Virus record (IMG/VR): IMGVR_UViG_2541047736_000006
Source of the DNA: a virus
Taxonomy: Duplodnaviria > Heunggongvirae > Uroviricota > Caudoviricetes
Strand: one strand, 5' to 3'
Length of the DNA: 29,571 nt
Shown piece by piece: positions 15,996 through 20,471 of this stretch. A program made the position numbers and the translations under genes. Each line of letters begins with the position of its first letter. Positions within the stretch are counted from its first letter, which is position 1. The notes below the pieces were generated by a model. That model had not been told where the DNA came from. It made no database searches and worked only from the letters and a program-made list of their open reading frames with translations.

Positions 15996-16724
15996 ATGAC
16001 GCACACACTGAATCCGGTCATCACTGTCACTGTGTCCGGTCCTGTGGGCAGCGGTAAAAGTTACGTACTGGCGCGGATAGAAGAGATGGTGAAACAGGAA
16101 CTCGGAAACAGCGTCATTGTCGATGCTGCTGACGTGGAGAATGAGCGCCGTATGAATGGCGAAGATCTGACGACCTGGCAGAAGCCACGGGGTGGCACAG
16201 TGATCAGGCTGGAGGAATACACGGGACAGGGCCTGTTGTCATACGGCGAGGAGCGTATCTGTCGGACGAATGAGCTGCTGGATGTTATATGCCCCACGGG
16301 CCGGCAACCCTGGATACTGCCCGATGCACTGCATGCCACCATTGCGGCACTGATGACAGTTTACGATCAGGAGCTGCTCATGAAGGAGTTACGTAAACTC
16401 ACCGGTCAGCCAACAGAATGTTGTTCGTCTCCGAAGTACGGCAAACAGGAACACATCCCGATTAACCAGCCTCCCCGGTTCTTCGACGAATACCTTCTGA
16501 CACCGGAAAATAAAGCTGAGCATGAAGAGATCAAAGCGGCGTTGTTCCGGGAAATCAGGAAGATTGCTGAAATGCAGTTGGGGGGCGGGCTGGACAGAGT
16601 GATGGCGAGAGGAGAATGGGCATCGCTGTTTGAAAGAGTTTCCCCGGAATTACTTCCCCTCGCACTGGCTATCGGGATTATGCAGACAGCGGATAAACCT
16701 CACTTACGTTCATTAAACACGTAA
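15996..16724 (+). CDS. P-loop NTPase / kinase-fold protein of unknown function
   Basis: Walker A motif GPVGSGKS at residues 15-22, preceded by a hydrophobic strand (VITVTVSG); GAGGAG 8 nt upstream of the ATG. Transcribed opposite to the late operon. Confidence 0.6.
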   Translation: MTHTLNPVITVTVSGPVGSGKSYVLARIEEMVKQELGNSVIVDAADVENERRMNGEDLTTWQKPRGGTVIRLEEYTGQGLLSYGEERICRTNELLDVICPTGRQPWILPDALHATIAALMTVYDQELLMKELRKLTGQPTECCSSPKYGKQEHIPINQPPRFFDEYLLTPENKAEHEEIKAALFREIRKIAEMQLGGGLDRVMARGEWASLFERVSPELLPLALAIGIMQTADKPHLRSLNT

Positions 16725-17104
16725 CGCATAATCCGGGATACGCATTCAGCGATGACTGCATTTTCACCGGTTTTTACTGCATCCAGAAGTGACTCTTTAA
16801 ATGGTACGGGCCGGGGCTGCAGAAAGGTCGGCATGGCATTGAGCAGACAGAGCGTTTTTTCCGTGAGGACGACATCAGCCGCTCCCACAGCCAGCAACTG
16901 AGAGTAACGAATATAGCTGTTATCCCGAAGCCATATCAGCGTATCAATAAAACACCGGCACTTTTTCTGGTCGTGATCAACCTGGTCCGGGATATCGAAA
17001 AAACCAGAATAAATCAAAACCTGAGGTGCCGGATGCGTGTTCAGTAATCGGCAGAATATTTTGCCGGTGAGTACATAAAAATCATCATTTAAGGAGTGCA
17101 TCAT
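16700..17104 (-). CDS. Hypothetical protein (134 aa), uncertain
   Basis: Only open frame across a 380-bp, AT-richer segment. No convincing SD, and its start codon overlaps the start of the divergent 71-aa ORF. Confidence 0.3.
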   Translation of the reverse strand: MMHSLNDDFYVLTGKIFCRLLNTHPAPQVLIYSGFFDIPDQVDHDQKKCRCFIDTLIWLRDNSYIRYSQLLAVGAADVVLTEKTLCLLNAMPTFLQPRPVPFKESLLDAVKTGENAVIAECVSRIMRYVFNERK

Positions 17105-17318
17105 GAATCCCCGATTAACGTTAACAGAACATCAGCGCCGTGCTGAAGCAGTGAACAATGTTCTGGAAGATATTATCCGGTTATACCGCGGAGAACTGAG
17201 TGTCTGTCGTGCCGCTTTTCATTTTCAGGGAATACAAAAGCAGTTTGATACTTCTGTTTTTGCAGAAGGTATTACTTATGCCCTGGACCGGATAAGGTCA
17301 GAAAATCGCCCCGGATAA
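17103..17318 (+). CDS. Small hypothetical protein (71 aa)
   Basis: ATG at 17103 with AAGGAG 6 nt upstream; followed 55 nt later by a perfect 12-bp hairpin. Confidence 0.45.
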   Translation: MNPRLTLTEHQRRAEAVNNVLEDIIRLYRGELSVCRAAFHFQGIQKQFDTSVFAEGITYALDRIRSENRPG

Positions 17319-18276: not shown

Positions 18277-18301
18277 GCTCAGAAGGAGGTAAGTAGTCTT
18301 G

Positions 18302-18333
18302 CATAACAATGCACCTGATGGTGCATTGTTATG
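18302..18333. terminator. Bidirectional terminator-like hairpin between convergent genes
   Basis: Perfect 14-bp stem CATAACAATGCACC-TGAT-GGTGCATTGTTATG, between the Dam stop (18276) and the membrane-protein stop (18329..18331, inside the stem). Confidence 0.5.
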
Positions 18334-18766
18334 ATATCACTTTGATTATATTGAATAATCGCCTACCTGTTTGTAATAAACACAACATAGACATAACAAC
18401 AAGCCCAATGAGGATAGCGGCTACAATCTCTTGATGCTTACTTTGCAGCATCAACCCAATCAAACATGTCAACACCAACACTAGCAAAACTAAGCAAGTG
18501 TAGAATGCATCGGTCATCAGACGCTTGTAATGTCCGGTTTTTTGCATGTTTTTAAGTAACGGTTTATCAAGCAATGATGCAAGTAGTGCAATTGCTGTAA
18601 TAATAAAACCTAACAACGTTGCAAAGACACTGGACAATGTAGTCATGAAGTTTGGGATTGCGGCTACTGGCATATGGGGCAACTTGAACCAGTAGAGAAA
18701 ACCAATCCCACATCCAATCAATAAACTAAGCAATAGGGCCGAGTTCATCTTCTCCAATATATGCAT
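18329..18766 (-). CDS. Small four-TM membrane protein (candidate effector of a repressor-linked module)
   Basis: Four hydrophobic helices (ALLLSLLIGCGIGFLYWF; LSSVFATLLGFIITAIALLASLL; AFYTCLVLLVLVLTCLIGLML; IVAAILIGLVVMSMLCLL). Preferred start is ATG 18766 (GGGAGAG 5 nt upstream), inside the 3' end of the upstream 297-aa gene; the track's ATG 18790 is the alternative. Confidence 0.6.
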   Translation of the reverse strand: MHILEKMNSALLLSLLIGCGIGFLYWFKLPHMPVAAIPNFMTTLSSVFATLLGFIITAIALLASLLDKPLLKNMQKTGHYKRLMTDAFYTCLVLLVLVLTCLIGLMLQSKHQEIVAAILIGLVVMSMLCLLQTGRRLFNIIKVIS

Positions 18767-19619
18767 TGATACTCTCCCGGTTTTCAGCATACGCAGTATC
18801 GATTAGACGGTACATGGTTTCGGCTGGAGGGAAACGAGCGTCAGTAACTACCGATTGATAGGACGAAATACGCTCGGCAATCAAATCCACAGGATGGACA
18901 ACACCATCAGCATCGAACACATCAATTACAGCCTTTTTCGCCCCAAACTCGACTAACTCTTGCATAGCAAATTTTATATTCTGCTTAAGCCTACCATCAC
19001 TATCGCCACGGCGAGTATTAATCCCCATTACAATTTGCATTGTATCGGCACCTGCATCACCAAGCAGTTGTAGTGTCTTTTGACTGAAATCAGTATCAGG
19101 GTAAAACTCAGGATTACGGGGGCGAGGAATCGTCAACTGGATTTTTTTCATTTTGACATCTCCTCTCATAAGCCTAGCGATTGCATCTTTTTCCAGCAAA
19201 GGTGCGGGCTTAACCTTTGAACCAAAGATAGTTGAAAGAAATGCACTAAAACGGCTTATACCACAAGCCATATGATTATAGTGCCAACCTATAACATTGA
19301 TTCGAGGATAGAATACAAAGAAATTGCGCTCAATGATCCCTTCATCCTTGGCAAGTGGAATAGGGGTAGACTGTTTCCCTGGTGCACCTTTATCCGGAAT
19401 GTTCGAGTTGCGAAATTTTCTCAACTCTCCACTAAAAGAACCATCCGCGCGTTTTTTCAACCCCCAAATTTCTCTAGTAAAACCCTCATGGTTTGAAGAG
19501 GAAGGGCTCTGTTTATCAATTACAGATTGAAAAGCATCTCCGAGATTTGCCAGCTGATCTGTGGCCTTAAACGATAGCTGATGAAACTCAATACGATAAT
19601 TTCTCACATCACCACTCAT
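18726..19619 (-). CDS. 297-aa soluble protein of unknown function (candidate sensor partner)
   Basis: ATG at 19619 with AAGGA 8 nt upstream; no TM segments or motifs I recognise. Overlaps the start of the 4-TM gene; visibly AT-richer than the phage backbone (by eye, not computed). Confidence 0.6.
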   Translation of the reverse strand: MSGDVRNYRIEFHQLSFKATDQLANLGDAFQSVIDKQSPSSSNHEGFTREIWGLKKRADGSFSGELRKFRNSNIPDKGAPGKQSTPIPLAKDEGIIERNFFVFYPRINVIGWHYNHMACGISRFSAFLSTIFGSKVKPAPLLEKDAIARLMRGDVKMKKIQLTIPRPRNPEFYPDTDFSQKTLQLLGDAGADTMQIVMGINTRRGDSDGRLKQNIKFAMQELVEFGAKKAVIDVFDADGVVHPVDLIAERISSYQSVVTDARFPPAETMYRLIDTAYAENRESINAYIGEDELGPIA

Positions 19620-19741
19620 ACGATTAATCCTTAACGCGGAAAGTTCAGATGGTTAGTGCAAACAGCACATCCTACTGTTTAAATCAGCGCATATAACGAA
19701 GAGGTTTGATAACCTTGTCAATTGTTCTCATTGGGAATAGA

Positions 19742-20173
19742 TTAACCCACATTTTTTAACCGCTCAATCGTTGCGGATAATTCCTTCAGTTGTTTTTCCA
19801 TCTCGATCACTCGCTGTTTTTCCGCAGCGCCTCGCAGAAGATCGTTACGAACCTCGGGGTCTAGCTGCTTTAAAAGCTCAAGCATAGTAAGGTCAGCTTG
19901 GCTAAACTGCACTTGCGTCGGAGTTACGTCTACTTCTTTTGATAAACCTTGTTTTCTACCTGTTAGCAACCAATCTAAAGAAACCCCCTTTTCTTCTGCG
20001 ATGTTTATGCAAATTGCATAAGGCACAGAATCACGCTTCCTCCAACTTGCAAGTGTCTGCCTATTGACGTTAAGCGCTCTTGCCAACTCACTATCATTCT
20101 CTGCTTGGAATAGTGACATTAACCGGGAAAGCACAGCGTTAACATCTTTGTTATTCATTTTGCGTAATTCCAC
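19742..20173 (-). CDS. Prophage repressor (CI/c-type HTH)
   Basis: HTH segment LARALNVNRQTLASWRKRDSVPY. Divergent from the Ner-like gene across a 73-bp operator region. Start may be the GTG at 20173 or the ATG at 20158. Confidence 0.75.
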   Translation of the reverse strand: MELRKMNNKDVNAVLSRLMSLFQAENDSELARALNVNRQTLASWRKRDSVPYAICINIAEEKGVSLDWLLTGRKQGLSKEVDVTPTQVQFSQADLTMLELLKQLDPEVRNDLLRGAAEKQRVIEMEKQLKELSATIERLKNVG

Positions 20174-20246
20174 TTGATTTATTTATTTTGAATAAGTACA
20201 TTTATTCATATTGAGTACATGATAACCCAACTGGAACTATCCGCAT
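20174..20246. promoter_or_regulatory. Immunity switch region (operators and divergent promoters)
   Basis: Direct repeats AGTACAT at 20195..20201 and 20214..20220, and an inverted repeat GAATAA-GTACAT-TTATTC at 20190..20207, between the divergent repressor and Ner-like genes. Confidence 0.45.
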
Positions 20247-20471
20247 ATGAATAAACAACAAGTTCGGGCACGACTAGTTGAACGAGGCAGTAGCTTGCGC
20301 CAGTTCGCGCTTAACGCAGGCTATGAGCCACGAACAGTCACACAGGCAGTCAGTCGCTGGGCTGGTAAAAGTGAACTACCACGTGGTCGTTTGACTTATC
20401 GGATTTTGCGAGATCTATCGGTTGCAATAGGTAAAGAAGTTACCCCCGGTATCCTTAAGGAGGTGTCATGA
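20247..20471 (+). CDS. ner: Ner-like / Cro-like DNA-binding protein
   Basis: 74-aa protein in the same place as Mu Ner (75 aa), first gene of the early operon and divergent from the repressor; HTH-like segment SLRQFALNAGYEPRTVTQAVSRW. Confidence 0.6.
   Translation: MNKQQVRARLVERGSSLRQFALNAGYEPRTVTQAVSRWAGKSELPRGRLTYRILRDLSVAIGKEVTPGILKEVS

Follow-up and report, generated by a model that had tools for sequence, protein, structure and literature searches.

The window analyzed here, a stretch of 29,571 nt that corresponds to an Escherichia coli Mu-like (transposable) prophage, carries beside its repressor gene two overlapping genes encoding a soluble protein of 297 amino acids (protein A) and a membrane protein of 145 amino acids with four transmembrane (TM) segments (protein B). 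This pair is probably a piece of cargo in the prophage immunity region and would function as a two-component exclusion (abortive-infection) module of the Rex type. An earlier note on this DNA had likened the two genes, as an architectural analogue only, to the lambda cI-rexA-rexB arrangement of a soluble sensor followed by a four-TM effector; structure matches and profile comparisons with shuffled controls strengthened that proposal, and the two proteins are most likely very distant homologues of RexA and RexB. By contrast, the suggestion that the system was unnamed and undescribed could not be maintained, since protein A falls in the DUF6731 family through its relatives and RexAB-like pairs that escape the Rex models (Sucellos and RexABpp) have already been validated. 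The pair is not a wholly new kind of defense, and it most likely belongs to a known abortive-infection type.

The two genes are located as follows:
18329-18766, minus strand: RexB-like four-TM membrane protein of 145 amino acids, presumed effector (four hydrophobic segments, RexB profile)
18726-19619, minus strand: RexA-like soluble protein of 297 amino acids, a divergent DUF6731 member and presumed cytoplasmic sensor (open reading frame [ORF])

In agreement with the earlier note, the ORFs overlap on the minus strand, downstream of and co-oriented with the repressor gene, whose product matches PF07022 and which lies 122 nt upstream. The 297-amino-acid gene has its own ribosome-binding site, AAGGA, 9 nt 5' of the ATG. 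The membrane protein had been given as about 145 to 153 residues with four hydrophobic helices, and the hydropathy profile bears this out, with hydrophobic segments at approximately residues 8 to 28, 40 to 66, 84 to 106, and 113 to 135. Read from the first ATG, its ORF spans 18329-18790 on the minus strand (153 amino acids); the ATG at 18766 (145 amino acids) is favored by the RefSeq annotation, by the homologues, and by the sequence GGGAGAG located 5 nt 5' of it. From this start, the gene overlaps that of protein A by 41 nt. When the 2.1-kb region around the pair was searched against 5,426 complete E. coli genomes, it was found at 99% identity or higher in 23 of them, at varied chromosomal positions, and the pair was 100% identical in at least 8 of the 23. 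Both genes are real.

Structural evidence was obtained with protein A. Among the searches that the earlier note had proposed, those with sequence models gave neither protein a Pfam or PADLOC name, while the structure search ranked RexA first for the 297-amino-acid protein. An AlphaFold2 (AF2) model was built on the family alignment, with a predicted local distance difference test (pLDDT) value of 75.5 and a predicted template modeling (TM-score) value of 0.73. The order of elements in this model, in which a globular domain is split by the insertion of an alpha/beta domain, agrees with the RexA fold and its inserted dimerization domain. When the model was compared with the full PDB by using Foldseek, lambda RexA was the best fold match (E value, 1.1e-7; ∼315 aligned columns) and RdgC was the second, with RexA clearly outscoring RdgC in both structure searches. 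The matching folds are those given as relatives of RexA in the RexA structure paper (PMC11077077). A search of the BFVD structures returned mainly unnamed proteins, together with one RdgC-like protein.

Comparison of sequence profiles pointed in the same direction. The RexA and RexB profiles were built from database homologues plus 40 viral loci, and their input included pairs only 23 to 30% identical to the lambda proteins that pass the PADLOC Rex models; three of these four pairs also pass the Pfam models, and the RexB-like protein of the locus L053 has no Pfam match. The DUF6731 profile (149 sequences) aligned with the RexA profile (40 sequences) in hhalign with a score of 49.7 and a probability of 89%, in a colinear, end-to-end alignment (residues 9 to 293 versus 4 to 277). 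The controls reached a maximum of 21.3 in 60 block-shuffled RexA profiles and 15.4 with the reversed profile. For its part, the partner family (27 sequences) aligned with RexB (16 sequences) with a probability of 87%, an E value of 4e-6, and a score of 40.0, against a maximum of 27.6 in 60 shuffles. These comparisons were run without the secondary-structure term, and the scores are moderate. Remote similarity to the matching lambda partner was found, in this way, for both proteins.

Protein B was further compared with RexB at the level of single sequences and motifs. The RexB hidden Markov model scored 19.7 bits on the membrane protein of the window, a value that was reached by 1 of 500 shuffles made within windows of 10; of 1,000 shuffles of a looser kind, none attained it. 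In a joint alignment, the partner family and RexB had in common GT-LGFLI in TM2 and, between TM2 and TM3, a basic loop whose last residues are K-x-G-[HY]-[YFM]. The motif GTILGFLI of the partner family was also present in a bona fide distant RexB (locus L052; Pfam RexB E value, 1e-8); judging by such sequences, distant bona fide RexB proteins bridge the partner family and RexB.

Several observations weigh against this interpretation. Neither protein of the window matched any Pfam or PADLOC model at an E value of 0.1 or below; protein A had no Pfam match even at an E value of 10 or below, the RexA model (PF15969) included, and its BLASTP comparison with lambda RexA remained at noise level. Similarly, protein B and five of its relatives gave no RexB match in Pfam or PADLOC. 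Shallow profiles also performed poorly, with a probability of 3% when a 17-sequence profile was compared with the single RexA sequence and of 3 to 54% over all the earlier, shallower comparisons; thus, deeper profiles are needed on both sides. The confidence of the protein A model is moderate at the pLDDT value given above, and its global TM-scores to RexA are low (0.38 to 0.40), so that the orientation of the domains would be unlike that of the RexA crystal form. The model of protein B is poor (pLDDT, 60) and the similarity to RexB therefore rests on sequence profiles, and membrane proteins inflate profile scores. Besides, the authors of the RexA paper argue for lambda itself that exclusion might simply follow from a function in the lysis-lysogeny switch (PMC11077077), and the functional role of the pair is predicted from comparison of sequences and models.

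As for the standard models, the same libraries (PADLOC in its 2023 version) detected lambda RexA and RexB, RexA-like proteins at 23 to 30% identity, and distant RexB proteins, so that the failure of the Rex models reflects distance and not a defect of the libraries. Searches with NCBIfam (both proteins) and a PDB sequence search (protein A) gave no informative match, and the PHROGs matches were to families of unknown function only. The AF2 model of protein B, in spite of its low confidence, consisted of four long helices plus a short loop helix.

The assignment of protein A to DUF6731 was made through its relatives. The Pfam model of this family (PF20505) has a gathering threshold of 27 bits, and it gave no match with the window protein or with the identical protein P0001. 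A relative with 76% identity (P0004) scored 26.4 bits, just below the cutoff, and three others that are 40 to 47% identical over 96 to 97% of the length (P0007, P0013, and P0017) scored 35 to 54 bits. Relatives also carry the NCBI/UniRef name "DUF6731 family protein," and we conclude from these sequence comparisons that protein A is a member of the family. An exhaustive profile search with the family of protein A yielded 1,051 clusters at 50% identity, of which the best 150 were mostly 280 to 305 amino acids long; a genome profile search with a narrower alignment gave 7 loci. Members were found in Salmonella (P0013 and P0028), and one lies on a 1.94-Mb contig of Vibrio natriegens. Thirty family representatives were looked up by cluster, which revealed members in Shewanella, Pseudoalteromonas, V. 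natriegens, Halomonas, and Psychrobacter; no member from Vibrio cholerae or Pseudomonas putida appeared among the clusters of these 30 representatives. No mention of DUF6731 was found in the papers searched.

The gene neighborhoods were surveyed at 33 loci. At all of them, and down to 28% identity, the DUF6731 gene was followed immediately downstream by a gene, overlapping or abutting it, for a four-TM protein of ∼140 to 150 amino acids. In this survey, which the earlier note had proposed, homologous pairs occurred beside repressors and next to a defense system. At 3 of the 33 loci (L072, L014, and Pseudomonas phage AUS531phi), the pair is directly downstream of, and co-oriented with, a repressor gene of the CI/LexA type. 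The repressors of L072 and L014 are of the helix-turn-helix (HTH) plus Peptidase_S24 type and face Cro-like genes, as in a lambda-type immunity region; that of AUS531phi is of the same type and faces an annotated HTH-XRE antirepressor gene. An immunity-region location was found for these three and for the window, and further family members occupy other cargo sites. Thus, the pair was opposite or beside the Q antiterminator gene in lambdoid prophages, adjoined the portal and terminase genes in P2-like prophages (the site at which P2 carries old and tin), stood next to AbiE at one locus, and lay inside a CP4-like island at another.

Mu-like prophages of Pectobacterium and Serratia also have the pair at this slot, in some cases together with additional genes. 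Small genes stand there between the repressor gene and the pair (L007, 6882-7870; L010, 4435-4866), encoding a Flk_N-like protein and a likely lipoprotein in one prophage and a zinc-ribbon membrane protein in the other, which suggests that cargo stacks up at the repressor-adjacent site.

In E. coli, the flanks of the slot (methylase and repressor) were matched in 635 of the 5,426 genomes. Most of these, including a sequence type 131 (ST131) prophage, have the repressor gene adjoining the methylase gene, with the slot free of cargo, and in strain G5 the slot holds a single ORF of 175 amino acids without a Pfam or PADLOC match. The slot between the dam-like methylase gene and the repressor gene comprises 18277-19741 in the window, compared with 2375-2490 in L083, the corresponding interval in L084, and 2427-2954 in L085. 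This presence or absence at one slot among related prophages supports the view of the earlier note that the genes are cargo (a "moron"). Taken together, the varied neighborhoods and the variable slot indicate a mobile cassette that has repeatedly landed in cargo sites expressed in the lysogen.

A pairing of this kind was also seen in a small tectivirus-like element, Vibrio phage 10N.286.54.F4_PE001 (L081, 1389-2896), where a 351-amino-acid, very distant relative is followed by a 150-amino-acid membrane protein. This pair comes directly after the integrase gene, and the TM2 and loop motif is recognizable in the membrane protein in a weaker form. The pairing would thus extend beyond tailed phages.

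The remaining features of the module are the following:
18302-18333, no strand assigned: perfect hairpin (14-bp stem, 4-nt loop) that closes the module on its 3' side, where the membrane protein and methylase genes converge
19620-19741, minus strand: 122-nt spacer between the repressor gene and the 297-amino-acid gene, containing the ribosome-binding site AAGGA (read from the sequence)
19742-20158, minus strand: prophage repressor of 138 amino acids from the RefSeq ATG (PF07022, Phage_CI_repr; E value, 1.2e-17; HTH protein in RefSeq)
20174-20246, no strand assigned: AT-rich divergent control region between the repressor gene and the Ner-like gene (GC content, 0.27; inverted repeats I2 and I4)

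The repressor gene, for which a GTG at 20173 offers an alternative start (143 amino acids), is likely the first gene of an operon and diverges from the Ner-like gene and the transposase genes. On the minus strand of the spacer 19620-19741, neither a terminator-like site nor a consensus sigma-70 promoter was detected, and no sigma-70 promoter belonging to the pair itself was located; we infer that the pair is cotranscribed with the repressor gene. The control region 20174-20246 is presumed to be the operator/promoter region that drives transcription of repressor, A, and B in the lysogen, by analogy with Mu Pc and lambda PRM. Two sets of inverted repeats within 20177-20255, one imperfect and 19 nt long, the other perfect and 11 nt long with its arms 33 nt apart, are candidate operators. 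Beyond it, a 74-amino-acid ORF on the plus strand (20247-20471) encodes a Ner-like HTH protein and diverges from the repressor gene; this ORF is unannotated in the identical RefSeq copy NZ_CP015076, and its equivalent is annotated in a related prophage (L085).

At the other end of the module, the perfect 14-bp hairpin that had been reported was found at 18302-18333. Its arms (18302-18315 and 18320-18333), of 14 nt each, are 100% complementary, and the hairpin overlaps the stop codon of the membrane protein gene. According to our own arithmetic, about 7e-4 such perfect hairpins would be expected by chance in 29.6 kb. The hairpin has no T-tract and is therefore not a canonical intrinsic terminator; it is probably a transcript-end or stabilizing structure. 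In a relative with 94% identity (L057), two base pairs of the stem differ, each by a compensatory change that preserves pairing, and at greater distances the relatives have other, unrelated hairpins at this position. Both facts argue that the stem-loop is under selection and is part of the module.

Base composition proved less informative than the earlier note had supposed when it took the AT-richness of the two genes as a sign of foreign origin. The GC content is indeed lower in the membrane protein gene (0.39) and in the 297-amino-acid gene (0.43) than in the rest of the window (0.55), but AT-richness is just as marked in the repressor gene (0.43) and in the operator region (0.27). The block of low GC content thus comprises the whole immunity module; as a mark of the pair alone being foreign, AT-richness was rejected, and the compositional argument for a moron is correspondingly weaker.

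Under the Rex-type interpretation, the repressor promoter would transcribe the repressor, A, and B genes in the lysogen as one leftward unit ending at the hairpin. Protein A, with its predicted split two-domain fold of the RexA/RdgC type, would probably act as a dimeric, nonspecific DNA-binding sensor, and protein B as a RexB-like four-helix protein of the inner membrane, with its N terminus, its positively charged TM2-TM3 loop, and its C terminus predicted to be cytoplasmic. Upon infection by another phage, A might be activated by a phage protein or by a DNA-protein intermediate of replication or recombination; it would then switch on oligomeric B, which would depolarize or permeabilize the membrane, so that growth would stop and the infection would be aborted. 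We infer cotranscription, DNA binding, the interaction between A and B, the trigger, depolarization, and the antiphage phenotype from homology, synteny, and the validated relatives.

The likeness to the lambda system (PF15969/PF15968; PDB 8TWQ) comprises the order of the genes on one strand (repressor, soluble protein of ∼280 to 300 amino acids, and four-TM protein of ∼145 amino acids), the best PDB fold match of protein A, the full-length, above-null profile similarity of each protein to the matching partner, and the hydropathy layout, TM2, and loop motif that protein B has in common with RexB. In contrast, the sequence models of RexA and RexB do not match the pair, and pairwise identity is ∼13%. 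Between rexA and rexB there is a gap of 15 nt, in place of the 41-nt overlap seen here; the pair resides in a transposable prophage, of the Mu-like kind, whose repressor is not of the LexA type; and the family of the window has conserved motifs of its own, RKFR and IDLIADR in A and NMxKTGHY and GRRF in B. The RexA of lambda binds DNA nonspecifically as a dimer, and RexAB excludes T4 rII mutants; a second role, in the lysis-lysogeny switch, is noted by the same authors (PMC11077077).

Other validated pairs resemble that of the window to different degrees. Sucellos (SclA/SclB), from a cassette of the V. cholerae superintegron, is a RexAB-like pair that escapes sequence models; both genes are required, SclB is a predicted membrane pore, and the homologues are mostly prophage borne, often in Salmonella (bioRxiv 10.1101/2024.07.02.601686). 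DefenseFinder reports it in ∼98% of the Salmonella Enteritidis isolates of one study. By its published description, it shares with the pair of the window a two-gene, RexAB-like predicted structure, the absence of Pfam Rex matches, carriage by prophages, and Salmonella members, a descriptive comparison that is not proof of identity. The pair of the window could itself be a Sucellos system, could represent a sister lineage, or could have no relationship to Sucellos at the family level, the comparison with SclA/SclB being one of descriptions.

RexABpp (PP_5643/PP_5644) of P. putida prophage P1 consists of a soluble protein and a four-TM protein encoded downstream of a CI-like repressor gene; both genes are needed, A binds DNA, and overexpression of A leads to B-dependent growth arrest and membrane damage (PMC12894663). 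A DUF6731 pair directly after a CI gene in Pseudomonas phage AUS531phi offers a similar arrangement, although in P. putida, unlike in the window, two extra genes separate RexABpp from the repressor gene. The terminal peptides of RexABpp deduced from published primers (MHRTATFV... and ...VYNKQSRLMV; MLIGQLANP... and ...LYYLGYKLQE), which cover the termini only, were found in none of the proteins gathered here, and the primer sequences were absent from the viral and metagenome collections searched. Finally, the Rex-like pairs of actinobacteriophages (Sbash gp30/gp31, CarolAnn gp44/gp43, and Butters gp30/gp31) combine a soluble and a membrane protein near the immunity repressor and mediate heterotypic exclusion, and their RexA-like proteins dimerize and bind DNA (PMC11077077). 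In Butters, the soluble protein is the effector. These pairs, whose hosts are Actinobacteria, differ in this from the pair of the window and were likened to it by description only.

Other explanations of the pair were weighed against the Rex-type module. It could mainly tune the lysogeny-to-lytic switch of its own prophage, with A binding DNA or the repressor and favoring induction, B restraining A, and exclusion being a side effect. The RexA-like fold, the recurrent position beside repressor genes, and the role of this kind that the lambda literature gives to RexA (PMC11077077) are in accordance with such a function, but the pair also occurs far from repressors (beside the Q antiterminator gene, the P2-like portal gene, and AbiE, and in the CP4-like island), most related E. 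coli Mu-like prophages lack it, so that it is not a core part of the switch, and the validated Rex-like relatives function in defense. We consider this explanation unlikely. Another possibility is that the resemblance to RexAB is convergent, A being a DNA-binding or recombination modulator like RdgC, tethered by a small membrane protein and acting in the control of transposition or replication. RdgC (PDB 2OWL) does share the fold class of protein A, as its second-ranked structural match, but it scores below RexA, and it is the product of a single housekeeping gene that prophages do not carry and that lacks a membrane partner. Convergence would also have to account for the above-null similarity of both A and B to the matching Rex partners in the same gene order, and for the movement of the pair among unrelated kinds of mobile element; its probability appears very low.

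With another known defense system made of a membrane and a soluble protein, such as Kiwa (KwaA/KwaB), or with a toxin-antitoxin or lysis cassette, the pair has no more in common than the combination of a membrane protein with a soluble one of ∼300 amino acids. Kiwa was rejected, as no match to a KwaA or KwaB/DUF4868 model or fold was found, and so were the toxin-antitoxin readings, likewise without a match; we give this group of explanations hardly any weight. The Rex-type module might, in addition, represent something more distinct. Within the Rex superfamily, DUF6731 and its four-TM partner could make up a large branch by themselves (more than 1,000 clusters at 50% identity, across Proteobacteria), distinct from lambda RexAB, Sucellos, and RexABpp, with a trigger specificity of its own and, in Mu-like phages, also acting on the repressor/Ner switch. 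This last proposal is tentative, and we regard it as rather doubtful.

To our knowledge, RexAB is the oldest abortive-infection system known, and we know of no settled account of its trigger or its mechanism of activation. If the Rex-type interpretation is right, a link to RexA and RexB would be established for DUF6731, a large uncharacterized family, and for its unnamed membrane partner, providing many natural variants for comparative and structural work, and Rex-type modules would prove to be cassettes that travel between genomic islands and prophages of the Mu-like, lambdoid, and P2-like kinds. The PADLOC 2023, Pfam, and NCBIfam models miss a pair that is present in at least 23 of the 5,426 complete E. 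coli genomes.

Regarding the prophage itself, searches for related phages by megablast with the 2.1-kb region gave no matches among deposited phages, and tblastn gave two phage records and one weak plasmid match only. The annotated RefSeq copy, NZ_CP015076 (strain Ecol_448, locus L001), has tail, head, and lysis genes that run leftward, whereas the genes for a DDE transposase, for an AAA+ ATPase of the ExeA type in the MuB position, and for Gam and Mor run rightward (RefSeq; Pfam). The immunity region lies between the leftward late genes and the rightward early transposition genes, and this two-directional arrangement (window, 1-29571; L001) differs from the single-direction layout of Mu. In the same copy, the annotation marks the tape-measure gene and one tail gene as frameshifted. 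In the interval from the lysis genes to the methylase gene of the window, three ORFs of unassigned function (242, 134, and 71 amino acids; 15996-17318) stand in alternating orientation and may be a second small cargo region. In Ecol_448, the prophage ends on its Mor-gene side ∼320 bp upstream of flgB (L001, 30070-30389; NZ_CP015076), where it may interfere with the control region of the flagellar genes flgA and flgB; this location is particular to Ecol_448, the prophage being elsewhere in the other genomes.

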